Shown here: in pieces, positions 2 through 16,729 of the stretch | Layout: every line of letters begins with the position of its first letter | How positions within the stretch are numbered: the first letter of the stretch is position 1 | Assembly (NCBI GenBank): GCA_013334745.1 | Contig: JAAXWY010000011.1 | Coordinates: forward strand, 1 to 55,640 | Origin: Coriobacteriia bacterium | GTDB lineage: Bacteria > Actinomycetota > Coriobacteriia > Anaerosomatales > JAAXUF01 | DNA: 55,640 bases | Direction: 5' to 3' | Program-made: the position numbers and the translations under genes | Notes under the pieces: model-generated | Told to the model about the DNA's origin: nothing | Databases searched by the model: none | Seen by the model: only the letters and a program-made list of their open reading frames with translations

Positions 2-559
2 CGCCAGTTCGGCGCCGACGAGTCGCTGGTTGCGGTTGTGCCGATTCCGGACGCGCTGCCCGCTGAAGATGTCGCCGCAGCCGAGCCGATTGCTGTCGTC
101 GAGATTGAGCCGGCACCCGACGTCGACCAAGTGGAGACCGACATCGTCGACTCCGTGGAGACCGCCGAGACCCCCGACTTCTCGGAGCTGCTCGACTCGC
201 TTGAGTCGGATGCAGCGCAGGTCGCCCCTTCAAGCATGACTCCGCCACCCCTCTACGAATCGATGCCCGATGCCGCGTTCGACTTCGATGAGGAGCTGCT
301 GCGCGAAGTCGCTCCGACGGTCGAGCCGGCGGGAGTCATCTCGACTGACTCCTTCCTCGATGACATCGGCGGTGGCGATATCGATTTCGACGGCGGCCTG
401 ACTGACGAGTTGTCGGCTCTTACGGGGGTGGGTCGACCGTCTCGACCGTCCGCGAGCGTCAATCGCATTCCCGAGAGTGGTACAGAGACACTGAGTAGGG
501 ATACGCGCGTGGATCGGGATACATTGCTCAAGATCATCGACGGTATCAAGAGTCTGTAG
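2..559 (+). CDS. Hypothetical highly acidic (D/E/A/P-rich) protein, 5'-partial. The frame is open to the window edge, and the listed start at 38 is a GTG.
   Basis: The reading frame continues without a stop from position 2. Composition is low-complexity acidic. The gene ends 15 nt upstream of the GTPase gene, so it is probably co-transcribed. No recognisable catalytic motifs. Confidence 0.4.
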   Translation, partial: RQFGADESLVAVVPIPDALPAEDVAAAEPIAVVEIEPAPDVDQVETDIVDSVETAETPDFSELLDSLESDAAQVAPSSMTPPPLYESMPDAAFDFDEELLREVAPTVEPAGVISTDSFLDDIGGGDIDFDGGLTDELSALTGVGRPSRPSASVNRIPESGTETLSRDTRVDRDTLLKIIDGIKSL

Positions 560-573
560 GGGAGTCGTCCAGG

Positions 574-1104
574 ATGCAGTCGGTCAAGGTCGTCATCACA
601 GGTCCGTTCAATGCGGGCAAGACGACGTTCATCAAGTCGGTGAGCGAGATCACGGTGCTTTCGACCGAGCGCCAGATCTCCGACGGATCCGCTGAGGGAT
701 CCGGCGAAACCACGGTCGCTATGGATTTCGGTCGTATCACGGTCTCGGATGACGTGGTGCTCTATCTCTTCGGCACGCCCGGGCAGTCGCGCTTCTCCTT
801 CATGTGGGAGACCCTCTCCGAAGGCATGCTCGGCTTCGTTCTCATCGTCGACGCGTCCGAGCCATCGACGCTCGAGGACGCGAAGGGGATGATCGACTTC
901 TTCAGAGAGATGTCGGATGTCCCCTTTGTTGTGGCCGCGAACAAGGTCGCCGCAGACGACACCGAGCAGATTCAGCAGGTTCGGGCCGACCTCGGCCTTG
1001 AGGATCGAGTTCCGCTTCTGCCCGTTGACGCGCGTAACCGGGACTCGGTGAAGGCCGTACTTCTCGGCCTGCTCTACGAGATCCTGGAGAGTATGGGCTC
1101 GTGA
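574..1104 (+). CDS. Small Ras/MglA-like GTPase of the actinobacterial conservon CvnD type, annotated in that family as an ATP/GTP-binding protein.
   Basis: P-loop GPFNAGKTT. Switch-II-like LFGTPGQ, comparable to TVPGQ in MglA. NKxD-like ANKVA. Length 176 aa. RBS-like GGGGAG lies upstream. Confidence 0.7.
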   Translation: MQSVKVVITGPFNAGKTTFIKSVSEITVLSTERQISDGSAEGSGETTVAMDFGRITVSDDVVLYLFGTPGQSRFSFMWETLSEGMLGFVLIVDASEPSTLEDAKGMIDFFREMSDVPFVVAANKVAADDTEQIQQVRADLGLEDRVPLLPVDARNRDSVKAVLLGLLYEILESMGS

Positions 1105-2357
1105 CCATGGATCCGCGGGTCCTCATACTCGGCGGCGCAACGGCACTACTGGTCATCGCGATCATCGCCACGATCTGGACGATGATCCGAGGCGGCGAAC
1201 GCTCCCACTTCGATGAGACCGCACCCCTGGCTTCAGAGGCGGAGTGGGCAGATGTGACCGCGCAAGGCGGCTCCGAATTCGACATGAGCCTCGCTGGCGT
1301 CGAGGTCACCATCGACCAGGACAGCCCGAATGCTGCGCTGTTCAGTCCGCTGCGCACGGGTGTCTGGATGCCCCCCGAGACCCCGGCGCCCGCGGAGCAC
1401 CTTCCGCCTGCGGCGCTGGATACGCGCATCGCCGCCTTCGAGGTCACCGCCGAGCGCGAACTGCGCGTACCTCAGGTGATCACGTCCGGCGAAGGCCCGA
1501 CCGAGCTGGATGCGCCGGTCGCGTACAGTGCGCCCGCTCCGGTGCTCCCGCCCATCATGCCTCCGAGTGTCACCGTGGCGACCACTCCGGAACCGCAGTC
1601 GGATGCACCTGTGGAGAGTCAGTCGCCTCTGACTCGGCTGCTCAGCGTTCCGGAGGTAGGGCGTGCCGACGCGGACCCCGTGCCGCAACCGGCCGGCGTC
1701 GCAACGTACGAGCCGGTTGCAGAGGATCCGGAGCCCCTCGAGGCGGTCGTCGCGGTGGCCGCGCCGAATCCGGAGCCTGTCGCGTGGGTGTCGCCGCTGG
1801 GCGCCCCCGACGCGGACGGCATCCTGGTTCTTCCCTTCGCACCTTCGGGCGACGCCTCCTTTGAACAAGTGGTGGCGGCGCCGGATCGCGTTGAGGTCGT
1901 TGAGCCGCGCACCCAGAGCGCAGACGAGGCGCTTGAGGATCGGGAGCAGCTTGTCTGGGAGCCCCCGACGGTCTCAGAGGTGGGCGCATCCCCGGCCGTG
2001 TCCGAATCGCCGAAGCCGCAACCGGAGCCGCAGCCGCAACCTGAGCCGCAGCCGTTGCTGGAGAACCCGGCGGTCCACTCCGCTGAGGATGATCTTCCTG
2101 CCCGCCCACGCGCCGTGGTGCATACGGTCGACCTCAGCGCTGCCCCACCCGCCGAGACCAAACTGGGTCCGTTGGCCGGCGCCTCGGCGGTTTCCACCGA
2201 AGGCCCGCCGTCCGACTATGAACTCGTGGCTCCGATCGAGATGTGGTTCGGCGACCATCGGGTTGGCGTGAAGGCCGGCACGGCGACTCACGATCGATTC
2301 AGACGATACGCGGACGCTCTGCTCGAGGACCTTCGGTCCGCAACGGATGACGCCTGA
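1101..2357 (+). CDS. Membrane-anchored Pro/Ala/Glu-rich protein with a single N-terminal TM helix and a long disordered region.
   Basis: GTGA overlap with the GTPase gene stop. TM segment LILGGATALLVIAIIATIWTMI near the N-terminus. Extended P/A/E-rich sequence including a (PQPE)n repeat. The ORF is uninterrupted for 418 aa. Confidence 0.5.
   Translation: MTMDPRVLILGGATALLVIAIIATIWTMIRGGERSHFDETAPLASEAEWADVTAQGGSEFDMSLAGVEVTIDQDSPNAALFSPLRTGVWMPPETPAPAEHLPPAALDTRIAAFEVTAERELRVPQVITSGEGPTELDAPVAYSAPAPVLPPIMPPSVTVATTPEPQSDAPVESQSPLTRLLSVPEVGRADADPVPQPAGVATYEPVAEDPEPLEAVVAVAAPNPEPVAWVSPLGAPDADGILVLPFAPSGDASFEQVVAAPDRVEVVEPRTQSADEALEDREQLVWEPPTVSEVGASPAVSESPKPQPEPQPQPEPQPLLENPAVHSAEDDLPARPRAVVHTVDLSAAPPAETKLGPLAGASAVSTEGPPSDYELVAPIEMWFGDHRVGVKAGTATHDRFRRYADALLEDLRSATDDA
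2011..2056 (+). repeat. Coding microsatellite-like repeat ccg-aag-ccg-caa-ccg-gag-ccg-cag... encoding PKPQPEPQPQPEPQP.
   Basis: Direct reading of the sequence: imperfect 6-nt repeat units (ccgcag/ccggag). Confidence 0.5.
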
Positions 2358-2459: not shown

Positions 2460-4133
2460 ATGGCGGAAGCGAGACAGCGGCTCGGCGCACTGCTCATGCG
2501 AGCAGGGATTGTCACCGAGAAGCAACTCAACGATGCGCTCGAAGTGCATCGCGCGACCGGCAGCCCGCTCGGGCGCATCCTTGTTGACCTTGGATACGCG
2601 ACCCAAGGCGCCATCCTGTCGGTCATGGCGCATCAGATCGGCATCGAGTACATCGATTTCGCCGAGGTGCGGCCTGAGCCTGCCGCCGTCTGTCTCGTCT
2701 CGCGTGAGATGGCGAGTCGCTACATCCTGATGCCGATTGAGATTCGCGACGATCATCTGGTCGTTGCGATGGCCGATCCGCAGAACGTCCTCGCGCTGGA
2801 TGACCTGCGCATAATCACGAACTACGAGATCAGGCCCGCGATCTCGACGAAGGACGATATCGTCGCAGCCATCGAGCAGTACTACCGAGAGGCAGAGTCC
2901 GAGGAAAGCGACCTGTTCCACGGCACGGACGAGCTGAGCAACGACGATCTCGCGGGATTGACCGAGGTCGAGAGCGAAGCGCCGGCGGTCAAGCTGGTGA
3001 ACTACATCATTCAGAAAGCGGTCGCCGACAGGGCTTCCGATATTCACATCGAGCCGCAGGAGCACGATCTTCGTGTTCGATTCCGCATCGACGGTGTGCT
3101 TCACGAAGCGATGCAGCCCGCACCGAAGTCGATCCAGACGTCGATCATCTCGCGGCTCAAGATCATGTCTGAGCTCGATATAGCCGAGTCGCGCAAACCG
3201 CAGGACGGGCACTGCGCGGTCGTGGTGTCAGGTCACACCGTCGACTTCCGTGTGTCCACTCTACCCACGGTCTACGGCGAGCGAGTCGTTCTCAGGATCC
3301 TTCGCAAGGACGCGATTCTGCTCGAGCTCAAGGACCTCGGGTTCTTGCCGTCGTCGCTTGATCGCTTCCAGTCGGCCTTCTCGAAACCCTACGGCACAGT
3401 TCTCGTGACCGGGCCCACGGGGTCGGGCAAGTCGACATCGCTCTATGCCGCCATCAACGTACTCAATGACCCGGCGAGGCACATCATCACAGCCGAGGAC
3501 CCCGTCGAGTATCGACTGCCCGGAGTCAATCAATGCCAGGTCAACTCCCGAGCCGGACTCACCTTCGCGCGAGCGCTGCGCTCCTTCCTGCGCTGCTCAC
3601 CCGACATCATCCTCATCGGTGAGATTCGCGATCAGGAGACGGCTCAAATCGCCATCGAGTCGGCGCTCACCGGTCACCTCGTGCTTTCAACACTCCACAC
3701 GAACGACTCGGCCGGCGCCGTCACCCGACTCATAGAGATGGGCGTCGAGCCGTTCCTGGTCTCATCTGCGGTTGACTGCGTTCTTGCCCAGCGCCTTGCG
3801 CGCAAGCTGTGCGGCGACTGCAAGCAGGAGTGGCGCCCGAAGTCGGAAGTGCTCATAGACGCGGGCTACGATGCCGATAATCTCCCGGAGGCCGTGTATC
3901 GCGCCGTCGGCTGCAAGAAGTGCGGCGGCACCGGTTACCGCGGCCGGATCGGTGTGCACGAAGTCCTCATGATGTCCGAGGAGATCAGTAAGCTGTGTGT
4001 TGAGGAGGCGACTTCTGAAGCCATTCGCGAAGTCGCGATCTCACAGGGCATGCGAACGTTGAGGCAAGACGGTCTTGAGAAGGTCCGCATGGGCCAGACG
4101 TCGATAGAAGAGGTCGTCCGGGTCATCGTATAG
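2460..4133 (+). CDS. pilB: Type IV pilus assembly (extension) ATPase PilB/GspE.
   Basis: N-terminal GspE_N-like domain. Walker A GPTGSGKST. Asp/His boxes. C-terminal tetracysteine CGDC...CKKCGG. Length 557 aa. Confidence 0.9.
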   Translation: MAEARQRLGALLMRAGIVTEKQLNDALEVHRATGSPLGRILVDLGYATQGAILSVMAHQIGIEYIDFAEVRPEPAAVCLVSREMASRYILMPIEIRDDHLVVAMADPQNVLALDDLRIITNYEIRPAISTKDDIVAAIEQYYREAESEESDLFHGTDELSNDDLAGLTEVESEAPAVKLVNYIIQKAVADRASDIHIEPQEHDLRVRFRIDGVLHEAMQPAPKSIQTSIISRLKIMSELDIAESRKPQDGHCAVVVSGHTVDFRVSTLPTVYGERVVLRILRKDAILLELKDLGFLPSSLDRFQSAFSKPYGTVLVTGPTGSGKSTSLYAAINVLNDPARHIITAEDPVEYRLPGVNQCQVNSRAGLTFARALRSFLRCSPDIILIGEIRDQETAQIAIESALTGHLVLSTLHTNDSAGAVTRLIEMGVEPFLVSSAVDCVLAQRLARKLCGDCKQEWRPKSEVLIDAGYDADNLPEAVYRAVGCKKCGGTGYRGRIGVHEVLMMSEEISKLCVEEATSEAIREVAISQGMRTLRQDGLEKVRMGQTSIEEVVRVIV

Positions 4134-4159
4134 CTCGGCAGCGAGCAGCTGTCGCAGGA

Positions 4160-5380
4160 TTGGGGGTCATCATGGCGACGTATGTGTACTCGGTTCGTGA
4201 CAAGGCCGGCAAGGTCGTCAAGGGCAAGCTCGAAGGCGACAGCAAAGAGGCCGTTCAGAATCGGCTGGCCCAGATGGGCTATATCATCCTCGAGCTCGAC
4301 ACGCAGGGCGGCTTCGCCGCCTTGAATGACATCCAGTTCGCTTCATCGGTCAAACCCAAGGAAGTCGCCATCTTCGCGCGGCAGTTCGCGACGATGATCA
4401 GCGCGGGCCTCTCGCTTACGAAGTGTCTCTCGATCCTGTCGGCCCAAACCGAAAGTGCGGCACTTCGGGTCGTCATCACGCAGATAGGCAAGGATGTCGA
4501 GGCCGGGCAGTCGCTGTCCGATGCCCTCGGCAAGCACCCAAAGGTGTTCCCGGCCATCTTCGTGAACATGGTTCGTGCAGGTGAGACGGGTGGTGTGCTC
4601 GACGAGGTGCTCAGCCGCCTCGCCGATCACCTCGAGTCCGAGCAGGCGCTCAAGAACAAGATCAAGTCGGCGATGACCTACCCGATTGCAATGGGCGGGC
4701 TTGTCCTCGTTGTCTTGGCGGCCATGATGATCTTCGTCGTGCCGACGTTCGAGAAGATGTTCACCGATATGGGCGGGAAGCTTCCGGCGATCACGCAGAT
4801 GCTCGTCGATGTATCCCACCTCGTGACGAGCGTGTGGGGAATCGCACTGGCCGTAGGCATCTTCGCCGCCGTTTCGCTGTTCAAGTGGTGGTCGGCCGGA
4901 CCGGGAAAGACAATATGGGACGGCGCGAAGCTCAACATGCCCGTATTCGGACCGCTGACCCGCAAGATCGCCCTCGCGAAGTTCACTCGGACCTTCGGCA
5001 CCTTGGTCTCAGCGGGCGTACCGATCCTCTCCGCGCTGGATATCGTCGCGGATACCTCGGGCAACGAAGTTGTCGCCAACGCCGTGAAGCACGCACGCAA
5101 TGCAATCAAGGAAGGCGAGACGATCGCGAAGCCGCTCTCCGAATCGAAGGTATTCCCGTCGATGCTCGTTCAGATGATCGCGGTCGGCGAGGAGACCGGT
5201 GCGCTCGACGCGATGCTCAACAAGATCGCCGACTTCTACGATGAAGAGGTCGCCGTCGCTACGGACGGTCTCACGTCACTCATCGAGCCGCTCATGATGG
5301 CGTCGCTCGGCGTGATCGTCGGCGGCATGGTCATCGCGCTGTACCTCCCGATGTTTCAGGTCATCACGCTCGTCAACTAG
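4160..5380 (+). CDS. pilC: Type IV pilus platform protein PilC/GspF.
   Basis: 406 aa polytopic protein with duplicated GspF-like domains. Located immediately downstream of pilB. Confidence 0.9.
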   Translation: MGVIMATYVYSVRDKAGKVVKGKLEGDSKEAVQNRLAQMGYIILELDTQGGFAALNDIQFASSVKPKEVAIFARQFATMISAGLSLTKCLSILSAQTESAALRVVITQIGKDVEAGQSLSDALGKHPKVFPAIFVNMVRAGETGGVLDEVLSRLADHLESEQALKNKIKSAMTYPIAMGGLVLVVLAAMMIFVVPTFEKMFTDMGGKLPAITQMLVDVSHLVTSVWGIALAVGIFAAVSLFKWWSAGPGKTIWDGAKLNMPVFGPLTRKIALAKFTRTFGTLVSAGVPILSALDIVADTSGNEVVANAVKHARNAIKEGETIAKPLSESKVFPSMLVQMIAVGEETGALDAMLNKIADFYDEEVAVATDGLTSLIEPLMMASLGVIVGGMVIALYLPMFQVITLVN

Positions 5381-5560
5381 TCGTTCAATTCAGCAGGACA
5401 GGCTGTCGACGCGTTGGTCGGCGCCTTGGATGACTGAGTTTGTGTTCATTGATCACAGGGAACACAACTCATATCGGATGTGTCGGGGGAGCGTCCTGAG
5501 AACTTGCTAAGAAAGTTCTAAAGTCCACGCTCGGGGCACCGATACACTACTTGTCAGGGT

Positions 5561-5579
5561 TGGGAGCAAAAGGCTCCCA
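5561..5579 (+). promoter_or_regulatory. Perfect 7-bp-stem hairpin TGGGAGC-aaaag-GCTCCCA, 35 nt upstream of the pilA1 start codon.
   Basis: The inverted repeat is visible directly in the sequence. It lies in the 233-nt pilC-pilA1 intergenic region. No U-tract follows. Confidence 0.3.
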
Positions 5580-5613
5580 CAATCCCCAGTAGGGGGGAAG
5601 GAGGTGCGGGGTC

Positions 5614-5961
5614 ATGAAGATGTTCCGTAAGGACGAGGGCTTCACACTCGTGGAACTCATGGTCGTCGTGCTCATTATCGGTATTCTTGTTGCTATCGCT
5701 ATTCCGGTCTTCAATGCTGCAAAGGCCAACGCCCAGAAGAAGTCGTGCTTCGCGAACCAGCGCACGATCGAGGGTGCGGCACAGACCTACGCCGCCGACA
5801 ACGACGGTACGCTTCCTGCAAGCCCGGCTGCGCTGACGCCGACCTACATCAAGGTCGCGCCGTTCTGCCCGGCTGACGCCTCGAAGGCCGCGTACTCGTT
5901 CGGTACGAGTGGCACCGTCGCTGCTTGCGGCTACGGGGATCCGGTTCACGGTCACTTCTAG
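5614..5961 (+). CDS. pilA: Type IVa major pilin (prepilin).
   Basis: Class III signal: MKMFRKDEG|FTLVELMVVV, with G at -1, F at +1 and E at +5. Hydrophobic alpha1 helix. C-terminal Cys pair (D-region). Strong RBS GGAGGTG. Length 115 aa. Confidence 0.85.
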   Translation: MKMFRKDEGFTLVELMVVVLIIGILVAIAIPVFNAAKANAQKKSCFANQRTIEGAAQTYAADNDGTLPASPAALTPTYIKVAPFCPADASKAAYSFGTSGTVAACGYGDPVHGHF

Positions 5962-5995
5962 GCCGACCGAGTTCCATCCAAGCACGAAGCCCTCA

Positions 5996-6020
5996 GGGCC
6001 GGCAGCTAAGCTGCCGGCCC
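5996..6020 (+). terminator. Strong GC-rich hairpin GGGCCGGCAGC-taa-GCTGCCGGCCC downstream of pilA1. A second, weaker CCGCC/GGCGG hairpin follows.
   Basis: Perfect 11-bp stem with a 3-nt loop beginning 35 nt after the pilA1 stop. A weak T follows, which is typical of high-GC intrinsic terminators. Confidence 0.5.
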
Positions 6021-6070
6021 TGTCGCATGCCCCGGGCCGCCTTTGGGGCGGCACTCGCGCGTTCACACGC

Positions 6071-6079
6071 TAGAATGGG
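6071..6079 (+). promoter_or_regulatory. Candidate -10 element TAGAATGGG upstream of pilD.
   Basis: TAnnnT -10 followed by a G-rich discriminator. The identical 9-mer recurs at 14009. Confidence 0.25.
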
Positions 6080-6123
6080 CGCGTACCCGCGACTTGGAGT
6101 GAATCCTGAACATCTTCTTCAAC

Positions 6124-6924
6124 ATGTGTGCCTTCGCGTTCGGGCTCATCTTCGGCTCGTTCGGCAACGTCGTGATCTGGCGGTTTCCGAGAGGCGAGTC
6201 ACTGTCGACACCCGGCTCGCATTGCCCCGTGTGCGACACCGCCATCGCCTGGTATGACAACGTCCCCGTTCTTTCGTGGATGCTGCTGCGCGGACGTTGC
6301 CGTGCGTGTGGGACGAAGATCTCTGCACGATATCCGGCAGTCGAGCTGCTGACCGGTGTTCTATGGCTTCTGGCGGCCATCCAGTTCGGCCCGACGGTCC
6401 AAGCTGGCTTCTGCGCCGCGTTCTTCTACCTTCTGGTGCTTCTGGCATTCATCGACTTGGACATAAAGCGTCTGCCCAACCCGCTTGTCGGGCTGCTCGC
6501 GCTCATCGGTGCGGTAGGCGTCGGGCTCTCACTCTTCGGTATCCCGGCGGCTCCGCTCATCGGTCCGGGCGGCGGGGTCTTGTCAAACCCGGCCGCGTTC
6601 GCTGTCGCGGGTTCGCTCTCGTCTGCAGGGCTCGTTCTGTTCATCGCACTTGCGTATCAGAAGGTGCGTGGCGTGGACGGATTCGGGATGGGAGACGTCA
6701 AACTGCTCGGGGCGATCGGTCTGTTCCTCGGCCCATATGCGCTGCTGACACTCTTCATCGGAAGCCTCATCGGGGCGGTGTATGGCTTGATCTCGGCTCG
6801 GACTTCACCGGATGGGCTGCGAAACACGTTTCCGTTCGGGCCTGCTCTGGCGGCCTCGGCCGTGATTGTGACGTTTGTCGGCGTGCCCCTCGTCGCTTGG
6901 TACCTGCACATCCTCACGTTCTAG
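6124..6924 (+). CDS. pilD: Prepilin peptidase and N-methyltransferase, A24 family.
   Basis: Zinc-binding CPVCDTAIAWYDNVPVLSWMLLRGRCRACG (C-x-x-C...C-x-x-C). Polytopic membrane protein. Length 266 aa. Confidence 0.85.
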   Translation: MCAFAFGLIFGSFGNVVIWRFPRGESLSTPGSHCPVCDTAIAWYDNVPVLSWMLLRGRCRACGTKISARYPAVELLTGVLWLLAAIQFGPTVQAGFCAAFFYLLVLLAFIDLDIKRLPNPLVGLLALIGAVGVGLSLFGIPAAPLIGPGGGVLSNPAAFAVAGSLSSAGLVLFIALAYQKVRGVDGFGMGDVKLLGAIGLFLGPYALLTLFIGSLIGAVYGLISARTSPDGLRNTFPFGPALAASAVIVTFVGVPLVAWYLHILTF

Positions 6925-6939
6925 GTGTGTGCGCTCGGT

Positions 6940-6953
6940 CACACGCGCGTGTG
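6940..6953. repeat. Perfect 14-bp palindrome CACACGCGCGTGTG immediately after pilD.
   Basis: Seen directly in the sequence. It could be a hairpin or a dimeric binding site in the pilD-pilA2 spacer. Confidence 0.3.
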
Positions 6954-7051
6954 CCTGGCTCCTCCAGACCTCTGTATCGCCTGACGATAATCGAGCCGTA
7001 ACATCTCGACGATCCGAGTCAGCGACGGAAGGAGATAGGAGGGTTGAACAC

Positions 7052-7411
7052 ATGCAGAAGTGCACAGCAGACGAGGGATTCACACTCCTCGAGATCATGG
7101 TCATCGTACTCATCGTCGGGATTCTTGTGGGGATCGCCATTCCGGTACTCGGCGCCGCCAAGGCCAACGCCCAGATGAAGTCGTGTTGGGCGAACCAGCG
7201 CTCCATCGAGGGCGCAGCGCAGACGTACGCGTCCGTGAACGGCGCAATGCCTGCCGGAGGTGCGGTTGACGGCGCAGGATGGGCGGTTCCCGTGTACATC
7301 GCTGAAGCGCCGATATGTCCGTGCGACGCCGCGATGAACCCGTATGAGATCGATGACCAGGGCACGGTAGTCAGTTGCTCGATGGGAGCGCCGGCCCACC
7401 AGCACTACTAA
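7052..7411 (+). CDS. Second type IVa pilin, paralog of pilA1.
   Basis: MQKCTADEG|FTLLEIMVIV, with G at -1, F at +1 and E at +5. RBS GGAGG is 8 nt upstream. Shares ANQR[ST]IEGAAQTYA and the C-terminal CPxD...HxH[FY] motifs with pilA1. Confidence 0.85.
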   Translation: MQKCTADEGFTLLEIMVIVLIVGILVGIAIPVLGAAKANAQMKSCWANQRSIEGAAQTYASVNGAMPAGGAVDGAGWAVPVYIAEAPICPCDAAMNPYEIDDQGTVVSCSMGAPAHQHY

Positions 7412-7659
7412 GTTCATTCACACGAGTGAAGGCCGCAGGGCTTTCGCACTACAGCCGAAGCCACGAAGTGACGATACTCTGCGCAGAAGCCCGGAAGCCA
7501 CCGACCCACGGTTCCGAGAAGATGCATGAGCGAGTCCGATTCGTGGCTTGGCTGTTTTCGGGGCTGGTGGGGACTTGACGAGCATGATTGCGATACACTC
7601 TGTGGTATCATTTCCACGGGTCATTCGTCACAGTAGTAGTCGTGGATTTGTTGTAGCAG

Positions 7660-8799
7660 TTGAGGGAGGACGCGTTGGCCCCGGTATCGTTCGGTGCCGC
7701 ACTACCGCCTGTCGGTCTGGACATCGGGACCGACTTCATCCGCGCCGCGCAGATCAAGGCCGGCGGTGCTTCGCATTCACTGACCGCGTACGGGATTGCG
7801 CCGATGCCTTTCGGTGCGGTCGTTGAAGGCGAAGTCGTGGATCCCGAAGCCGTTTCCGCGGCCATCAAGGAGTTGTGGCACCGCAGCGGCGTGCGCAACA
7901 AGTCGGTTGCTGTCGGGGTCTCGAACCAGAAGGTCGTCGTTCGCCTAGTCGACCTGCCGTACATGGAGCGCGCCGAACTCGCGGGTGCGATTCAGTACCA
8001 AGCCCAAGACTACATCCCGATTCCGATCGAGGAAGCGATCATCGACTTCCAGATCATCGGTGACTACATGACCCCGGCTGACGAGCACATGATGGAAGTT
8101 CTCCTCGTCGCGGCCCAGCGGGACATGATCGGCAACATCGTCTCCGCGGTCGAAGGCGCCGGTCTTCAGCTCGCGCAGGTCGACGTCACGGCATTCGCGC
8201 TGGTTCGCGCCCTGCTGGGGGCCACCCCTAAGTGGCTCTCCGAGGAGGCCGAGAACCCGGCTGAGGCCGTGGGTATCGTCCACATCAGTTCCGGGCTGAC
8301 GAACATCGCGGTCGTGGAGCGTGGGCTTCCGCGTTTCACTCGCGTGTCATCGCTTGCCGCAAACCAGTTCACGCAAGCGATTGCCAACGTCATGAATCTG
8401 ACGTTTGACGAAGCCGAGAACCTTAAGGCCAGGGCGGGGCTGCCCGATATCGATCAGCCGGCCGAGTCGCACCCGGATCTCGATGCCGCCACGCTCTCCG
8501 CGGTGCAGGATGCGCTCGAGCGCGAAGCGAACAAGTTCATCGCCGAGGTTCGCAGGTCATTTGACTACTATCTCACCCAGGCCGTGCAGGTTCGAAGCAT
8601 CGGTCGGATCTACCTCACAGGCACCGGGGCCGAGCTTCGGAACCTGCCCGTGTACCTCGGACGCGGTCTCCAGACCGAGGTCGTGCTGGGGGACGCGCTG
8701 GCCGGGTTGCAGATGAGCGGCTCAGTCGAGTCCTCCGTGCTGCCGGATCGCGCGGGCTGTGCTGCAGCGATCGGCTTGGCGCTGGGAGGGGTGGTGTAG
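7660..8799 (+). CDS. pilM: Type IV pilus assembly protein PilM, an actin-like ATPase fold protein.
   Basis: LDIGTDFIRAAQ N-terminal sugar-kinase/actin fold motif. The stop abuts the pilN ATG. The true start may be the TTG at 7675, which follows a GGGAGG RBS. Confidence 0.85.
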   Translation: MREDALAPVSFGAALPPVGLDIGTDFIRAAQIKAGGASHSLTAYGIAPMPFGAVVEGEVVDPEAVSAAIKELWHRSGVRNKSVAVGVSNQKVVVRLVDLPYMERAELAGAIQYQAQDYIPIPIEEAIIDFQIIGDYMTPADEHMMEVLLVAAQRDMIGNIVSAVEGAGLQLAQVDVTAFALVRALLGATPKWLSEEAENPAEAVGIVHISSGLTNIAVVERGLPRFTRVSSLAANQFTQAIANVMNLTFDEAENLKARAGLPDIDQPAESHPDLDAATLSAVQDALEREANKFIAEVRRSFDYYLTQAVQVRSIGRIYLTGTGAELRNLPVYLGRGLQTEVVLGDALAGLQMSGSVESSVLPDRAGCAAAIGLALGGVV

Positions 8800-9441
8800 A
8801 TGCTTCGCATCAACCTGCTCCCTCGGGAGGTACTTGATCGCCAGAGGTTCCAAGGCTGGTACAGGTACGTCTTCATCATCACGCTTGGTCTCGTGCTCAT
8901 CGTTCTGCTCGTTGCGGCCGGCCTCTACTTCTCCGTGCAGCAGAAGAGCGATGAGTTGCAGTCAGCCAAGGATCGAGCGCAGCAGTACGCCGAACAGGGC
9001 AAGGCGTTCGACGTGTTTGAGAAGAAGGAGCAGGAGCTCACCGACCGACAGGCGATCGTCCAGACGGCGTTGGCCGGTCGTTTCAACTTCGGTCGTGTGG
9101 TCGAAGAGGTGTCCCTCGTTCTTCCCGACGAGGTGTGGCTCGATTCAATGAGTGTCGACCAGGCCAACGGACTGTCGATGGTCGCCAACACGCCTCGGTC
9201 GAGCAGCCAAAGCATGAATGTCGCCTACAAGTCGGTCGCAAAGACGCTTGTGCGGCTCAATGAGCTTTCAGAGGTCACCGACGTGTGGCTCACGAATGCA
9301 GCGAATCAGACCTGGAAGAACTGGGATGTATCCAGTTCTATCGACACAGGCACACCCGTGGTTCAGTTCACGGCGTCGGCGAAGTTCTCGCAGAGCACGC
9401 CATCGACCTCGACAGTAGCCCCAACGGGGGGTGCTGAGTGA
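8800..9441 (+). CDS. pilN: Pilus assembly protein PilN, bitopic.
   Basis: MLRINLLPRE N-terminus, a single TM helix and a coiled-coil periplasmic region. Tandem with pilM. Confidence 0.8.
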   Translation: MLRINLLPREVLDRQRFQGWYRYVFIITLGLVLIVLLVAAGLYFSVQQKSDELQSAKDRAQQYAEQGKAFDVFEKKEQELTDRQAIVQTALAGRFNFGRVVEEVSLVLPDEVWLDSMSVDQANGLSMVANTPRSSSQSMNVAYKSVAKTLVRLNELSEVTDVWLTNAANQTWKNWDVSSSIDTGTPVVQFTASAKFSQSTPSTSTVAPTGGAE

Positions 9442-10052
9442 TGTCCATCTCTCCTCGTGATCGTCTGGTCATCACCATTGTCGCGGCCGTACTTGTACTC
9501 GTCGCCCTGATTGCAGCGCTTGTGTACCCGCAGTTTCAGCAGGTGCGCAAGCTCAACACGCAGGTCATTGAGGCTGAAGCACAGGCCGACGCCGCAAAGC
9601 TCCAACTCGAGCAGCGGCAGGGCTTCAAGGACCGCGCGATCGAAACCAACGCCAAGTGGCTTGGGCTCATGAATGAGGTTCCCGAGACGCCCGACCTGCC
9701 CTCGCTCATTATCGAGCTGCAGGACTCCGCATACGAGAGCGGCGTTCAGGTCATCAGCGTCACTCCGACACAGCCCACTCAGCTGACGGGGTATGCCGCA
9801 GTGCCGATCTCGATCGAGGTGCTTGGGACGTGGGCGGATACCGTCGACTACCTGCAGTCACTGATGAAGTTGGATCGCGGTGTCCGGGTCGTCGGTACGA
9901 ACGTGACTGTGGCCGGAAGCGGGGCACTGCCTGAGCGCCGAAACTCCAAGGTGCCTGCGTATGCGGTGAGCTCTGTGATTTCAATTGAGACGTATCTGAT
10001 CCCTGCCGCGGTCGAGACCGCGACTCCGTCCGCGACTTCGACTGCACAGTAG
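9438..10052 (+). CDS. pilO: Pilus assembly protein PilO.
   Basis: ATGA overlap with pilN. N-terminal TM helix plus coiled coil and a C-terminal ferredoxin-like region. Position in the operon. Confidence 0.8.
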   Translation: MMSISPRDRLVITIVAAVLVLVALIAALVYPQFQQVRKLNTQVIEAEAQADAAKLQLEQRQGFKDRAIETNAKWLGLMNEVPETPDLPSLIIELQDSAYESGVQVISVTPTQPTQLTGYAAVPISIEVLGTWADTVDYLQSLMKLDRGVRVVGTNVTVAGSGALPERRNSKVPAYAVSSVISIETYLIPAAVETATPSATSTAQ

Positions 10053-10062
10053 GGGAGGGAAC

Positions 10063-10680
10063 ATGGCCGACAACACGAATGGGCAGCCGCCGGTGGGACC
10101 AGATCAGAAGCCTGCCTCGGCGACTTCAGGCTTTCTCTCCTCCACCGCTGGCAAGCTCGTGGTCGGCGGTGTGCTGTTGTTCTTGGTGCTGATTGCGGTA
10201 GGCGCTCTCGCGTTCTTCTTCCTCTTCGGTTCCGCCGCTCAGAAGGTTGCTCCTAGCTCCTCGACCACCGCCACAGCTCCGTCCAACCCGGCGACCGAGG
10301 GCATCGTACCCACGGACCCGCCTGAGCAGCCGCTGGACGAGACATTCACCTTCCGCAACGTCTTTGCGCCCACGGTCACGCCCGCACAGTCGAGTACGGA
10401 CGCCGATTCCGGTAGCGGCGGCTCGAGTGGCGACACATCACCAACGGCGAGCGGCGCGACCGACACCCTCATCCTGAAGTCGATTCACACGGACTCGGGT
10501 GAGCGAGTCGCGACGTTCGAGTGGAACGGCGCGGTGTACGAGTGCCGTGAGGGCGACCAGGTCGCCCAATCGCCATGGGAGGTCGTGACCATCTACTCCG
10601 ATTCCGTCGTCATGTTGTACGGCGACAGTCGAATCACCCTCACCGTGGGCCAGGGCTACACCGGATCCTGGGACAAGTAG
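10063..10680 (+). CDS. PilP-like protein: TM anchor, an S/T/P-rich linker and a C-terminal beta-domain.
   Basis: The C-terminal domain LILKSIHTDSGERVATFEWNGAVYECREGDQV...VVTIYSDSVVMLYGDSRITLTVGQ resembles the PilP beta-sandwich pattern. Position directly after pilO. Confidence 0.5.
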   Translation: MADNTNGQPPVGPDQKPASATSGFLSSTAGKLVVGGVLLFLVLIAVGALAFFFLFGSAAQKVAPSSSTTATAPSNPATEGIVPTDPPEQPLDETFTFRNVFAPTVTPAQSSTDADSGSGGSSGDTSPTASGATDTLILKSIHTDSGERVATFEWNGAVYECREGDQVAQSPWEVVTIYSDSVVMLYGDSRITLTVGQGYTGSWDK

Positions 10681-10760
10681 CGCGTCCGGCCGCGTGGCCG
10701 AGCATGTCCGCCGGTCGCACCCGGCCGGCTTCGACCACCAAGTGAACGAAAGGCCCGGAT

Positions 10761-11912
10761 ATGCGTTACGAGACTGCAGGCGAATCCCATGGGCGGGCGC
10801 TCACCGCGATCGTCACTGATGTGCCCGCGGGAATCCCTATCGACACTGACGCCATAGACCGTGATCTTGCGCGCCGTCAAGGCGGCTACGGTCGAGGTGG
10901 CCGGCAGCGCATCGAGACCGATCGCGCGACGATCCTTTCGGGTGTTCGGTTCGGCAAGACCATTGGAAGCCCGGTTGCGCTGGCTGTGGCGAATCGGGAC
11001 TTTGAGAACTGGCTTGATGTCATGAGTACCTCAGGCGTGCGCCCTGACGGGATTCGCGAGACGCACCCACGTCCGGGACATGCCGACCTGGCAGGCGTGC
11101 TGAAGATCGGATCGGACGACGCCCGAGACATCCTTGAACGTGCGAGCGCGCGCGAGACGGCCGCGCGCGTCGCGGCGGGTGGTGTCGCGAAGGCGCTCCT
11201 GAGTGCCATGGGTGTGTCGGTGAGATCCTACGTCGAGGCTATCGGCGGGGTGGTCATGCCCCTGGTCGACGATCCATCGACAGTCGATCCCGAGGTCGTC
11301 GAGTCAAGCGCCGTTCGATGCCCGGACCCTGACGCCACGGAGTCCATGAAGGCACGCATAGACTCAGCCCGCGCTGATGGCGAGTCGCTGGGTGGGGTGT
11401 TCGTGGTGACCGCTACCGGGCTCGTCCCAGGCCTTGGATCGTACGCCGAGGCGATGCGTCGTCTCGATGCACGGCTTGCAGGTGCTGTGATCTCGATTCC
11501 TGCGATCAAGGGCGTCGAGTTCGGTCTGGGGTTTGCGGCCGCGGCGGTGCCCGGTAGCCAGGCCCATGACGAGATTCATCACGATGCCGAGAGCGGCTTT
11601 CATCGGCCAACGAACCGTGCCGGCGGACTCGAAGGCGGCATGACGAACGGTGAGCCGCTCGTCGTGCGCGCCGCGATGAAGCCGATTCCGACCTTGATGC
11701 GCCCTCTCGCGAGCGTGGATCTCGATAGCCTTGAGCCGGTGGACGCGAGCAAGGAGCGCAGCGACATCTGTGCGGTCCCGGCGGCGGCCGTCGTGGGTGA
11801 GGCCGAGGTCGCGATCGTGCTGGCAACCGCCTACATGGAGAAGTTCGGTGGGGACTGCCTTGAGGACATGCTCGTAGCGCGTGATGCCTACCTCTCCCGG
11901 ATCAGCCGATGA
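10761..11912 (+). CDS. aroC: Chorismate synthase.
   Basis: MRYETAGESHGRALTAIV N-terminus and a full-length 383 aa product. Confidence 0.9.
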   Translation: MRYETAGESHGRALTAIVTDVPAGIPIDTDAIDRDLARRQGGYGRGGRQRIETDRATILSGVRFGKTIGSPVALAVANRDFENWLDVMSTSGVRPDGIRETHPRPGHADLAGVLKIGSDDARDILERASARETAARVAAGGVAKALLSAMGVSVRSYVEAIGGVVMPLVDDPSTVDPEVVESSAVRCPDPDATESMKARIDSARADGESLGGVFVVTATGLVPGLGSYAEAMRRLDARLAGAVISIPAIKGVEFGLGFAAAAVPGSQAHDEIHHDAESGFHRPTNRAGGLEGGMTNGEPLVVRAAMKPIPTLMRPLASVDLDSLEPVDASKERSDICAVPAAAVVGEAEVAIVLATAYMEKFGGDCLEDMLVARDAYLSRISR

Positions 11913-13537
11913 GTCACGTATTCCTGATCGGGTTCATGGGCGCCGGCAAGTCGACGGTTGGTCCTCTCGTGGCTGAGCGACTGGGTCGGCCGTTCATCGA
12001 CCTGGACGAAGTAGTCGCGGGGCAGCAGGGCCGAGAAATCGTCGAGATCTTCGAGGGTGATGGCGAAGCGGCGTTTCGCGCCTTCGAGCTCGAGGCCCTT
12101 GGGTCGATCGCGGACCGTTGTGACTCAGTGGTCGCATGCGGGGGCGGTCTTGTCACGATGCCGACGTCTGTCACGCGCATGCGCAAGCTTGGAACCGTGG
12201 TCCATCTTGTTACGACTGCCGATGAGGCTCTCAAGCGAATTGCTGATCCGTCGACGCGACCACTTCTCGCGGGTGAGAACCCTGAGTTGGCCGCGCGGTC
12301 GTTGTTGGACTCAAGACGCGAACTCTACGCAGCCGCAGCGGACTACGAGGTCGACACTGTGGGTCGGCCTATTGCTGAGGTCGTGGATGAGGTGGTGCTG
12401 CGTGTTGCATCGGCGCCCCGGCGCGGCCGACCGGTTGTCGTCCCGGTCAAGGTCGGCGAGATGCCGTATGAGGTGGTCATCGGGCCGGGTGTCCTCGAGG
12501 ATGCTGGGGCGCTGCTGCGCATCGGTGCGCCAACGGCCGGGCGAATTGCGCTTGTCACTGACACGACGGTCGGAGACCTGTTCGGTCTTACGGTGGAGCG
12601 AAAGCTCATCGAAGAAGGCTACGCGGTTCATCCCCTCGCTGTAGCTCCGGGTGAAGACTCCAAGAACTGGGCCGTGGCTGGGGAGATCCTTGAGGCACTG
12701 GCGGAACTGCGCTTCGAGCGGACTGACTTCGTGGTCGCGCTCGGCGGCGGCGTAGTCGGCGACCTAGCCGGCTTTGTGGCGGCGACCTACCTGCGCGGGA
12801 TTGGCTTTGCTCAGGTTCCAACCACTCTGCTCGCGCAAGTCGACTCATCCGTTGGCGGCAAGACCGGTGTGGACCTCAAAGCCGGCAAGAACCTGGCAGG
12901 CGCCTTCAAACAGCCTACAATTGTGATAGCGGACACAAATACTCTGGAGTTGTTGCCGCAGAGCGAATGGCGCAGTGGAACCGCCGAAGTGGCGAAGAGC
13001 GCAGTTGTAGACGGTGAGGAGTTCTTCAGCTGGCTCGAGGCCGCCGCTGAGCGGTTCGTTTCCAGGGATGAACGGACGATTATCGAGGCAGTTTCTCGGT
13101 GCGTCAGGTTCAAGGCGAGCGTCGTATCTGCCGATGAAACCGAGGTAGGACCGCGCGAGTGTTTGAACTACGGACACACGCTCGGGCATGCGATCGAGAA
13201 GGTTGCCGGTTACGGCGCGGTTCCGCACGGGATCGCGGTCGCGGAGGGCATGCGATTTGCGGCGAGACTCTCGGTCGAGGTTTCGGGTGGGAGCAGGGAG
13301 TTCGTCGCGAGGCAGGATGCCATCCTCGATACCCTCGGATTGGGAGCGATGACAGAGGCGCTGGATCCGCAATTGGTGCTTGAGGCAATGCATTCCGACA
13401 AGAAGGCACGAGGTGGAACGGTGCGATTCGTACTGGTGGAAGCTCCAGGAACGTGGAGGTGCGAGCCGATCGCGGACGCCGTGATCGCCGAGCACCTCGA
13501 CGCTTGGTTGGAGTCGAAGGTCAGGAGGACGCCATGA
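11909..13537 (+). CDS. Bifunctional shikimate kinase and 3-dehydroquinate synthase (AroK-AroB fusion).
   Basis: N-terminal [16 protein letters not shown]-loop (AroK, about 165 aa) fused to a DHQ synthase domain ([11 protein letters not shown]..., metal-binding His residues). ATGA overlap with aroC. Confidence 0.85.
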
Positions 13538-13968: not shown

Positions 13969-14008
13969 CGCGTGTGTGAAGGGCACGGCTACGCAGCGGT
14001 GTGCGGCG

Positions 14009-14017
14009 TAGAATGGG
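14009..14017 (+). promoter_or_regulatory. Candidate -10 element TAGAATGGG upstream of the modular pilin gene.
   Basis: The same 9-mer as at 6071. It lies about 20 nt upstream of the ATG at 14035. Confidence 0.25.
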
Positions 14018-14034
14018 TAGAGGGAAGTGGCACG

Positions 14035-16062: not shown

Positions 16063-16071
16063 GCGAGGACA

Positions 16072-16728
16072 ATGCGATTCCTCGATGATGACAGCGGTCT
16101 GACCCTTACGGAGTTCTTGATCGTCGCGATGCTGATCTCTGTGATCATCACGGCGTCGTACTTCATGTTCAATGCCGCCGCCTCGATGACTGATCAGACG
16201 ACGGCGCGCGCCTACGCACAGGACGAGGCACAGCGCGCGGTCGACCGGATGACGCGCGATCTGCGGCAGTCGATGCAGGACACGAGCGACAACAACGGCG
16301 TTGTGCGGATCGCCGAGGCGAGCCAACTGAAGTTCTCAGCGGATGTCAATGCGGACATGAAGCCGGAGATGATCCGCTATTACATCGAGGGGAACTCGCT
16401 GAAGCGCACGGTGGCGCTCCCGACAACCTCTGAGGTTCCCTATAGCTACGGGAGTCCGGGTGCGCCCACGATACTGATCAAGAAGCTGGGAACGTCGGCT
16501 GGAACGATGTTCTGCTATCACAGCGTCGACCGCAACACGACCGTCTATTGCGGGCCCATCAAGCATGGATTCAACGTGGTCACCACGACCGACCCGTTTA
16601 ACACGACACCCAAGATCTCCATGATCGGAGTGAAGTTGGACACGGTGGGCGAATCCGGCTCCAAGACAGTCACTGTCACCAGCCGGGTGATGGTTCGCAT
16701 CCGCACAGTAGAGAATCGGGTTGATTAG
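16072..16728 (+). CDS. Minor pilin or pseudopilin with a prepilin-type N-terminal cleavage/methylation domain.
   Basis: MRFLDDDSG|LTLTEFLIVAMLISVII, with G at -1 and E at +5. Length 218 aa. Located 9 nt after the modular pilin stop. Confidence 0.7.
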   Translation: MRFLDDDSGLTLTEFLIVAMLISVIITASYFMFNAAASMTDQTTARAYAQDEAQRAVDRMTRDLRQSMQDTSDNNGVVRIAEASQLKFSADVNADMKPEMIRYYIEGNSLKRTVALPTTSEVPYSYGSPGAPTILIKKLGTSAGTMFCYHSVDRNTTVYCGPIKHGFNVVTTTDPFNTTPKISMIGVKLDTVGESGSKTVTVTSRVMVRIRTVENRVD

Positions 16729-16729
16729 C

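Follow-up and report, generated by a model that had tools for sequence, protein, structure and literature searches.

A Ras-like GTPase gene accompanied by Roadblock and PATAN genes 5′ of pilB in Actinomycetota: a putative G-protein module of a type IVa-like pilus locus

Introduction

The GTPase MglA and the Roadblock protein MglB of Myxococcus xanthus and Thermus thermophilus (MglA Group 1) are tied to type IV pili (T4P) through the polar sorting or activation of the extension ATPase PilB. MglB is the GTPase-activating protein (GAP) of MglA (PMC3199381), and in Myxococcus MglA acts on pili via SgmX, a tetratricopeptide repeat protein, and not via a PATAN-domain protein. In this study, we analyzed a 55,640-bp stretch of DNA (the window), which is exactly the whole of contig JAAXWY010000011.1 from a "Coriobacteriia bacterium" metagenome-assembled genome (MAG). 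The window begins with the end of a PATAN-protein gene, a Ras-like GTPase gene, and a gene designated here as gene 4, which are followed by a T4P locus. As in Group 1, a GTPase and a Roadblock partner are associated with T4P. Unlike Group 1 MglA, which carries an Arg finger and TVPGQ, the window GTPase has TT and GTPGQ, and it is encoded in the pilus operon, whereas Myxococcus mglA is not near the genes of its characterized partners.

MglA Groups 2–5 are defined by GTPGQ in the G3 motif and by Thr instead of the Arg finger (PMC4316618). According to the same study, Group 5 has a canonical G4 motif, [NT]KxD, a poorly conserved G5 motif, and one or more PATAN genes nearby. Its Table S2 assigns MglB>PATAN>MglA triads to Group 5 in Aquificae, Chloroflexi, Cyanobacteria, Deinococcus-Thermus, and one actinobacterium, and lists Acidothermus Acel_1323 as Group 5 with the order "<MglA><PATAN><MglB>". 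The triad is therefore already known from comparative genomics (Wuichet & Søgaard-Andersen 2015, PMC4316618; Makarova et al. 2006), and the module described here shares with it a single-domain Ras-like GTPase with GTPGQ, TT in G2, and PATAN and Roadblock neighbors. However, Group 5 neighborhoods were called variable in PMC4316618, with PATAN genes just "occasionally" near and no link to pilus genes, while the triad studied here is fixed 5′ of pilB. It also has a fourth conserved gene and long disordered linkers on all partners, its window-type G4 departs from [NT]KxD, and its G5 is "DAR" as in Groups 2/3.

Two other described systems are comparable. Conservons, or actinobacterial G protein systems (AGPS; CvnA–D, MfpA–E), occur in the same phylum, and their GTPases form a sister clade to those described here; a Roadblock partner, the G5 sequence "DAR," and a small gene between the Roadblock and GTPase genes are common to both. 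The present module differs from them in having no kinase or DUF742 gene, in having a PATAN gene in the middle position, and presumably also in its output, a membrane machine as opposed to the regulation of genes or the protection of gyrase. PatA-type PATAN–receiver (REC) proteins of cyanobacteria (PixE, PixG, and PilG) likewise contain a PATAN domain with an α-clip, which binds PilB1 and PilC and sets the site of pilus activity. The PATAN domain of Synechocystis PixE alone binds the N-terminal domains of PilB1 and PilC and is sufficient to reverse phototaxis (bioRxiv 10.1101/2021.06.11.447907). In contrast to these proteins, the PATAN protein described here has a winged-helix-like region, an acidic linker, and a C-terminal helix instead of a receiver domain, and it is encoded with a GTPase and a Roadblock protein rather than with a chemotaxis-like kinase.

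A conserved part played by PATAN domains in pilus regulation "remains to be seen" (bioRxiv 10.1101/2021.06.11.447907). According to a 2019 review, Tad-type pili alone have been studied in Actinomycetota, and a 2026 survey of AGPS covers conservons only, with no PATAN- or pilus-linked system. In the literature that we searched, no paper links actinobacterial T4P with Roadblock, PATAN, or GTPase proteins. We consider it fairly probable that a four-gene G-protein module (Roadblock, PATAN adaptor, GTPase, and gene 4) is built into the actinobacterial type IVa-like pilus locus and that its GTPase acts via the PATAN protein on PilB/PilC. What appears to be new is the operonic embedding of the module in a pilus locus across the phylum, the gene 4 family, and the tethered architecture of the components.

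Results

Gene order upstream of pilB

The components of the module are identifiable and tightly coupled, they keep a conserved position 5′ of pilB-(pilT)-pilC, and their GTPases are separate from those of conservons. The window contains the following parts of the module and of the pilus motor.

2..559, + strand: PATAN (DUF4388) protein, C-terminal 185 aa of about 700 aa (alignment to the C-termini of L002, L003, and L004 proteins)
497..556, + strand: terminal amphipathic helix of the PATAN protein, RDTRVDRDTLLKIIDGIKSL (C-terminal pattern h..hh.[GAC]h..L-COOH)
574..1104, + strand: Ras-superfamily small GTPase, MglA family, groups 2–5 type, 176 aa (Pfam, motifs, and tree)
1101..2357, + strand: gene 4, with an N-terminal transmembrane (TM) helix, a disordered linker, and a C-terminal ββα mini-domain (AlphaFold2, AF2; likely start ATG 1107)
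2238..2339, + strand: C-terminal ββα mini-domain of the gene 4 product, APIEMWFGDHRVGVKAGTATHDRFRRYADALLEDL (AF2 and phmmer)
2460..4133, + strand: PilB-type extension ATPase with an MshEN N-terminal domain (Pfam T2SSE 6.5e-140, MshEN 1.4e-21)
4160..5380, + strand: PilC platform protein (Pfam T2SSF 4.1e-70)

A first-pass annotation of the window had placed the GTPase and its neighbors immediately upstream of the pilus ATPase, and this was confirmed: pilB and pilC directly follow gene 4 after a gap of 102 nt. The gap contains no terminator-like site and has no Rfam match, and the one promoter-like site in it corresponds to the chance frequency. The PATAN stop codon and the GTPase start codon are 14 nt apart.

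The exact GTPase sequence was found only in the source contig and in a 3.3-kb Logan contig with an identical start, and the upstream context was therefore taken from relatives. A scan with one genome per GTDB species provided 80 loci, onto which the module and pilus proteins were mapped by tblastn. Synteny was counted in 75 non-redundant Actinomycetota loci, which were regarded as assessable for Roadblock and PATAN when they had 3 kb or more of sequence upstream and for PilB when they had 4 kb or more downstream. Three relatives with long contigs share the order aroE, PilB paralogue, Roadblock/LC7 (approximately 200 aa; Pfam Robl_LC7, 1e-16), approximately 700-aa PATAN protein, GTPase, and gene 4, followed by PilB, PilC, pilin, PilD, PilM/N/O, and aroC. 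The first-pass annotation had noted the absence of the usual Roadblock and sensor-kinase partners from the window. Extension through the relatives shows that the Roadblock gene does exist, followed by the PATAN gene and then by the GTPase gene, and that a kinase and DUF742 are lacking there as well.

Roadblock and PATAN genes were present upstream of the GTPase gene in all 61 assessable Actinomycetota loci, with Roadblock two genes upstream, inside the four-gene distance to an MglB/Roadblock gene that characterizes the MglA family. Linkage of the GTPase to T4P genes across genomes, which had been raised as a check, is conserved: PilB is encoded within 4 kb downstream in 50 of the 54 assessable loci, a number that rises to 53 when the distance is extended to 10 kb. 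The whole arrangement was found in 41 of the 45 fully visible loci. Because it recurs in dozens of species-level genomes, it is not a product of chance.

The loci belong to Coriobacteriia/Anaerosomatales-like MAGs (68–92% GTPase identity), to Geothermincolia-like MAGs, and, with 54–60% GTPase identity, to the Frankiales, Mycobacteriales, Nanopelagicales, Acidothermaceae, and Sporichthyaceae of the class Actinomycetes. The flank alaS-ruvX-yceG-aroE is common to a Frankiales MAG (L063) and the relatives in the window's clade, which speaks for the region having been inherited vertically as a whole. In the locus of an Acidothermus MAG (L074), pilB begins 18 nt past the GTPase match. The placement of aroE varies, being aroE-pilB#1-module in the window's clade, aroE-module in Frankiales, and module-aroE-pilB in Solincola-like MAGs. 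The Roadblock proteins share a strongly conserved core, to which the Asp-Gly pair described for the MglB partners of Groups 2–5 belongs, and have lineage-specific extensions that bear short conserved terminal motifs, namely N-terminal "GDFFLSDVDDELL" in the window's clade and C-terminal "GWSSYAPSG...PSWS" in Actinomycetes.

Several variations of this gene order were observed. Relatives in the window's clade have a second full-length PilB paralogue (MshEN and T2SSE, approximately 52% identity) 5′ of the Roadblock gene (L002, 5398–7068), and thus two PilB genes flank the GTPase module in this clade; such a paralogue was seen upstream in 27 of the 56 Actinomycetota loci whose upstream sequence extends to 6 kb or more. 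Solincola-like MAGs (L045, L046, L049, and L066) show three tandem Roadblock matches and a PATAN protein of 1081–1273 aa, with aroE between the GTPase gene and pilB. At other loci, a multi-pass Wzy_C (O-antigen-ligase-like) protein is encoded between GTPase/gene 4 and pilB (L053, 10583–12061; L040, 8174–10078; L068; L059), and this protein of class Actinomycetes loci may be a pilin glycosylation enzyme.

Adjacency could also reflect co-expression alone, with the module serving as a general switch for cell polarity or envelope organization of which pili are one output or not the main one. Consistent with this, Myxococcus MglA controls several machineries, the locus lies among the housekeeping genes alaS, ruvX, mltG/yceG, and aro, and the PATAN–GTPase pairs of Anaerolineae, Deinococcus, and Thermus are not beside pil genes. 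However, the actinobacterial module stays just 5′ of pilB while the position of aroE shifts between lineages, and direct binding of PATAN domains to PilB and PilC has been found where examined. We regard such a general switch as unlikely.

The GTPase and its placement

The GTPase displays all the motifs on which its description as a Ras-like GTPase had been based. It matches Pfam ATP_bind_1 (1.9e-17), Ras (9e-8, 32.3 bits against a cutoff of 21.6), and Arf (31.8 bits, cutoff 22.3), and its score against TIGR00231 small_GTP (39.5) is slightly under the cutoff of 42.5. G1 is GPFNAGKTT (residues 10–18, nt 601–627), G2 is GETTVAMDFG (residues 44–53, nt 706–732), G3 is FGTPGQ (residues 66–71, nt 769–786), the degenerate G4 is NKVA (residues 123–126, nt 940–951), and G5 is VDAR (residues 151–154, nt 1024–1035). 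The hallmarks of MglA Group 1 are absent, G2 being ETTV without the Arg finger and G3 being GTPGQ rather than TVPGQ, and those of Groups 2–5 are present, namely GTPGQ and a Thr that replaces the intrinsic Arg finger. Homologues with 82–89% identity are abundant.

Structural comparison contributed little to the placement. A shallow alignment left the AF2 model mediocre (predicted local distance difference test, pLDDT, 65), and structure-based placement was dropped, since the Foldseek matches were generic Ras/Rab chains that do not discriminate. Among PDB sequences, the MglA match is weak (T. thermophilus MglA 3t12, E 2.5e-5). An assignment to anti-phage defense was rejected, as PADLOC gave a marginal LeoA match alone (E 0.0024).

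The deviation in G4 raises the question of whether this protein is a degenerate pseudo-GTPase, or one with altered nucleotide specificity, that serves as a static adaptor or an ATP-dependent switch. Among 120 close homologues, the position after NKV is occupied by A in 41, D in 34, S in 14, E in 11, and G in 10, which means that the G4 Asp is replaced by A, S, E, or G in 76, and the GTPases of the class Actinomycetes have lost the G4 Lys too (NR..). On the other hand, G1, G2 (TT), and G3 (GTPGQ) are invariant in 120/120. An alignment of 25 sequences shows that D129, three residues past the canonical G4 Asp position, and R154 of the G5 "DAR" are invariant and that D152 is nearly so (at least 90%). 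Moreover, the conservon protein CvnD9, with an even more deviant G4, was reported as an active GTPase (Komatsu 2006, as cited in PMC4316618). Loss of GTPase function or a changed specificity is thus very unlikely in our view.

Compared with the Group 5 description, the GTPase has the PATAN neighbor (in the relatives), but its G4 is NKV[A/D/S/E/G], with Asp in 34/120, and its G5 is "DAR" as in Groups 2/3. Given the listed Acidothermus example and the clustering with Acidothermus-like loci, the protein appears closest to Group 5 and fits the MglB>PATAN>MglA arrangement of that group. In a neighbor-joining tree (200 bootstraps, rooted on a Ralstonia Group 3 sequence), which holds neither a Group 1 reference nor the reference Group 5 sequences of Wuichet & Søgaard-Andersen, the PATAN-linked GTPases form one clade (94% bootstrap) and the conservon GTPases another (92.5%), the two being sisters at 85%. 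The phylogeny that had been suggested against MglA and CvnD families therefore separates the protein from conservon CvnD, within the range of these references. Of the proposed MglA/CvnD-like affiliation, membership in the MglA family and kinship with CvnD stand, although the protein lies outside the conservon clade and lacks the Arg finger and TVPGQ of MglA proper.

This kinship had left room for a complete conservon upstream of the GTPase gene in other genomes, that is, a CvnA–D cassette which is merely beside pili and regulates transcription or metabolism. In favor of such a cassette, ATP_bind_1, the best Pfam match of the GTPase, is also carried by conservon CvnD proteins, the identity to genuine CvnD is 43–46%, G5 "DAR" is common to both, and the two clades are sisters. 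In the reference conservons, which were genuine ones taken from actinobacterial plasmids, the kinase gene is followed by those for Roadblock, DUF742, and the GTPase. However, three CvnA and three CvnC queries gave no tblastn match within 10 kb on either side in any of the 75 Actinomycetota loci, and the Pfam lists agree. In the absence of kinase and DUF742 genes, the locus is not a conservon; its G4 is NKVA and not the conservon NxFD, the GTPase falls outside the conservon clade, and the pilus linkage is kept in 50/54 loci. We rejected conservon identity on these grounds, and a conservon-type cassette is essentially refuted.

A broader reading reverses the relationship: Roadblock–PATAN–GTPase–gene 4 would belong to the actinobacterial type IVa pilus as an ancestral and integral component, conservons would have derived from this module, and the PATAN half would be the exchange factor. 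This would make the module a second "actinobacterial G protein system," with the GTPase in place of the phosphorylatable receiver domain as the input to a PATAN adaptor gating PilB/PilC, and CvnC/DUF742 would be a remnant of the winged-helix and C-terminal-helix half of the PATAN protein. CvnC is made up of a winged helix and a C-terminal helix. The positions of the two genes, both between Roadblock and GTPase, the sister relationship of the two GTPase clades, and the resemblance of the CvnC end "...LLTEVLDGIANL" to the PATAN-protein end "...LLKIIDGIKSL" weakly suggest such a remnant. The CvnC homologue MfpC has been reported to be a guanine nucleotide exchange factor (PMC11343762). Comparison of the two winged-helix regions by hhalign gave P 0.002 and a probability of 13%, and a hidden Markov model (HMM) of the PATAN C-terminal helix did not retrieve CvnC above background. 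We offer this derivation as a tentative idea and doubt it on present evidence.

The PATAN protein

The open reading frame (ORF) at 2–559 is open at the window start and is labeled "hypothetical protein HGB10_04595, partial" by NCBI. The first-pass annotation had taken it as an acidic partner of the GTPase. Its acidity is evident (pI 4.05; 42 Asp+Glu versus 10 Lys+Arg), but it is not a separate small protein, being instead the tail of an approximately 700-aa PATAN/DUF4388 protein, as seen from its alignment with the C-termini of 697–734-aa proteins in L002, L003, and L004. The N-termini of these homologues match Pfam DUF4388/PatA_N (2e-33). Judged by this alignment, the ORF comprises the acidic, Pro-rich, disordered linker and the conserved C-terminal helix and motifs of a PATAN adaptor. 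Homologue searches with the window fragment returned short C-terminal fragments only.

In the full-length proteins, a PATAN domain that contains an α-clip insertion precedes a winged-helix-like region with weak MarR/helix-turn-helix matches only, a coiled, acidic, Pro-rich linker, and C-terminal motifs. No REC domain was found in PATAN orthologues of 697–1130 aa; the N-terminus of the window protein itself is cut off. An amphipathic helix closes the PATAN proteins of every lineage, a similar one being present in Deinococcus and Thermus, and 67 of the 78 products of the gene directly 5′ of the GTPase gene fit the C-terminal pattern given above. Most of the non-fitting ends are frameshifted ORFs or the Anaerolineae variant ...RLIDRIRGL. 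In L059, L042, L053, and L058 (MFD long-read MAGs), the C-terminal helix is in a frame other than that of the gene body, which indicates frameshift errors of assembly and not real truncations.

The α-clip (L002, 7896–8400, residues 57–113) resembles the MshEN repeat of PilB. Its second repeat in L002, RLGQILVDEGYISDKVLESFVQDQ, fits the 24-residue MshEN motif, and the first is degenerate. Binding of cyclic di-GMP (c-di-GMP) by the α-clip was considered and found unsupported, as 24 of 60 proteins have one intact MshEN-type half-site and 0/60 have two.

The gene 4 product

The GTPase gene and gene 4 had been described as translationally coupled through GTGA. Tight linkage holds with either start: GTG 1101 overlaps the GTPase stop codon by 4 nt as GTGA, and ATG 1107 lies 2 nt past the stop. 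The GTG itself is the less probable start, and ATG 1107 is likelier because the orthologues begin with "MDxRL." The description of the protein as membrane-anchored and rich in Pro and Ala was borne out by a predicted TM helix at residues 3–29 and a Pro+Ala content of 29%. AF2 predicts this helix with pLDDT 87–97, disorder from 38 to 364 (about 330 residues) in a linker rich in Pro, Ala, Glu, and Val, and a C-terminal domain with strands at 378–381 and 384–387 and a helix at 393–411 (pLDDT 77–89). A short peptide repeat of the PQPEPQPQPEPQP type occurs in the linker (window 2018–2062).

The gene 4 product has no match in Pfam, NCBIfam, PADLOC, or PDB sequences, and a search of PDB sequences with a profile of the domain gave a best E of 0.07. 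A word-indexed homologue search retrieved three proteins only, and exhaustive phmmer was needed: with the last 60 aa it identified 192 clusters (50% identity) at E<=1e-3. Every match falls at the very C-terminal end of its protein, the proteins being 40–830 aa long, and an N-terminal TM helix is present in 84 of 94 full-length-like family members. Across the family, the linker varies from approximately 30 to approximately 750 residues, and both ends are conserved. The counterparts in the three long-contig relatives are 415–476 aa and have no Pfam match.

The TM form is limited to the window's clade. In the class Actinomycetes, the gene 4 position is occupied by a 70–420-aa protein with a basic N-terminus and no TM helix, and its C-terminal "RVxLGFxDGSxxxLxP...A..L" is co-linear with the window type (hhalign probability 75%); on this comparison, its C-terminal domain is probably homologous to the window-type ββα domain. 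We read the gene 4 product as a putative accessory protein that carries a tethered, partner-binding domain.

A membrane anchor on a long tether, encoded between the GTPase and pilB, would also suit a one-off assembly or placement factor: the GTPase would be FlhF-like and nucleate the pilus machine in a monoderm envelope, with the gene 4 product as a membrane landmark. The long disordered linkers and short conserved terminal motifs of the partners suggest scaffolding, which is in line with this possibility. Nevertheless, the Roadblock (GAP-type) partner and the invariant catalytic Gln point to regulated cycling, and many Actinomycetes loci in which the module is otherwise retained have no gene 4 or a non-TM version of it. 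A one-off placement role is, in our estimation, quite unlikely.

The pilus locus and its surroundings

By Pfam, the genes downstream of the module constitute a type IVa-like (monoderm) pilus set of PilB, PilC, pilin, PilD, PilM, and PilO. In addition to pilB and pilC, the locus contains the following genes.

5614..5961, + strand: type IV pilin (Pfam N_methyl 1.1e-8)
6124..6924, + strand: prepilin peptidase PilD (Pfam A24_N_bact 2.3e-36, Peptidase_A24 5.9e-11)
7052..7411, + strand: second pilin-like protein (N_methyl 3e-4, below the cutoff, 20.6 vs 21.2 bits; start ATG 7052 placed by the position of the N_methyl motif)
7660–8799, + strand: PilM (Pfam PilM_2 8e-54)
8800–9441, + strand: PilN-position protein (no Pfam match)
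9438–10052, + strand: PilO (Pfam PilO 1.2e-13)
10063–10680, + strand: protein of no assigned function after PilO (no Pfam match)
10761–11912: aroC, 3′ of the pilus locus
11909–13537: aroK-aroB fusion, 3′ of aroC

No PilT-like retraction ATPase is encoded anywhere in the 55.6-kb window, and in many relatives pilT lies between pilB and pilC. PilB residues 7–59 (window 2460–2640) include two MshEN-type 24-residue motifs, RLGALLMRAGIVTEKQLNDALEVH and PLGRILVDLGYATQGAILSVMAHQ, separated by the 5-residue spacer RATGS. The relaxed motif for c-di-GMP binding given by Wang et al. 2016 is matched by the second, and the first ends in His rather than Gln. Based on these motifs, PilB may be a c-di-GMP receptor.

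The pilus locus (2460–13537) sits inside a shikimate-pathway neighborhood. Further 3′ of aroKB (window 13972–18073) are a 696-aa CarboxypepD_reg/Big_1 repeat protein and two Pfam-less ORFs (16072–16728 and 16721–18073). A similar repeat protein is encoded immediately after the pil cluster in L004, and this protein may be a pilus-associated surface protein.

Discussion

Synteny and the published binding of PATAN domains to PilB/PilC together suggest regulation of the pilus by the module. In the mechanism that we propose, the GTPase would cycle between GTP and GDP, its catalytic Gln71 being kept and an intrinsic Arg finger being absent. The Roadblock dimer would serve as a GAP and/or an exchange regulator of the GTPase, like MglB on MglA and CvnB/MfpD in conservons. 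The PATAN protein would be the effector or adaptor: its PATAN domain may contact the N-terminal domain of PilB and/or the cytoplasmic domain of PilC, as in PixE, while its C-terminal helix or winged-helix region may dock the GTPase or the Roadblock protein. A PATAN adaptor controlled in this way leads us to propose that the GTPase replaces the receiver domain of PatA-type regulators. The ββα domain of the gene 4 product, on its long flexible membrane tether, would recruit the switch to the pilus base or localize it there, and the module would thereby control the place or the time of PilB-driven pilus extension. In three of the four components, a folded domain occurs together with long disordered tethers and with short motifs at the termini, which suggests a multivalent assembly at the pilus base, as far as we can infer.

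Several points weigh against this mechanism. We infer every interaction among the proteins of the module, and the Roadblock gene and the PATAN domain lie outside the window because the contig ends there. The G4 Asp is not conserved (34/120 NKVD), and GTP specificity and cycling are therefore putative. Gene 4 is missing in L070, L074, and L078. Seven Anaerolineae loci have a closely related PATAN–GTPase pair, sometimes with Roadblock, and no pil genes within 10 kb, and the triads on Deinococcus and Thermus plasmids adjoin c-di-GMP genes (EAL, GGDEF, and HD-GYP), not pilus genes. Regulation of pili is therefore not intrinsic to the triad, and the pilus linkage is a property of Actinomycetota and not of the triad generally.

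The neighborhoods of these other triads have features of their own. In Anaerolineae, the gene after the PATAN–GTPase pair codes for a V4R-domain protein, for a Roadblock protein, or for an α/β hydrolase (L057, 2821–3495; L083, 5402–6052; L055/L062). The Deinococcota triads (L088, 7369–11125, on a Thermus oshimai plasmid; L089, 4309–10317, on a Deinococcus plasmid) are flanked by protoglobin, EAL, GGDEF, HD, and HD-GYP proteins, which hints at a connection of the triad with c-di-GMP in that phylum.

The locus unites, in one operon with the pilus motor across a phylum, what has been described separately for MglA/MglB switches, PATAN–PilB/PilC binding, and MglB–PATAN–MglA triads. It provides a testable hypothesis for the role of Group 5 MglA GTPases and of stand-alone PATAN proteins, and it adds an unannotated protein family, that of gene 4, with 192 clusters. 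It also draws attention to type IVa pili in Actinomycetota, and suggests that these bacteria carry, besides conservons, a second G-protein system that is possibly an evolutionary relative of them.

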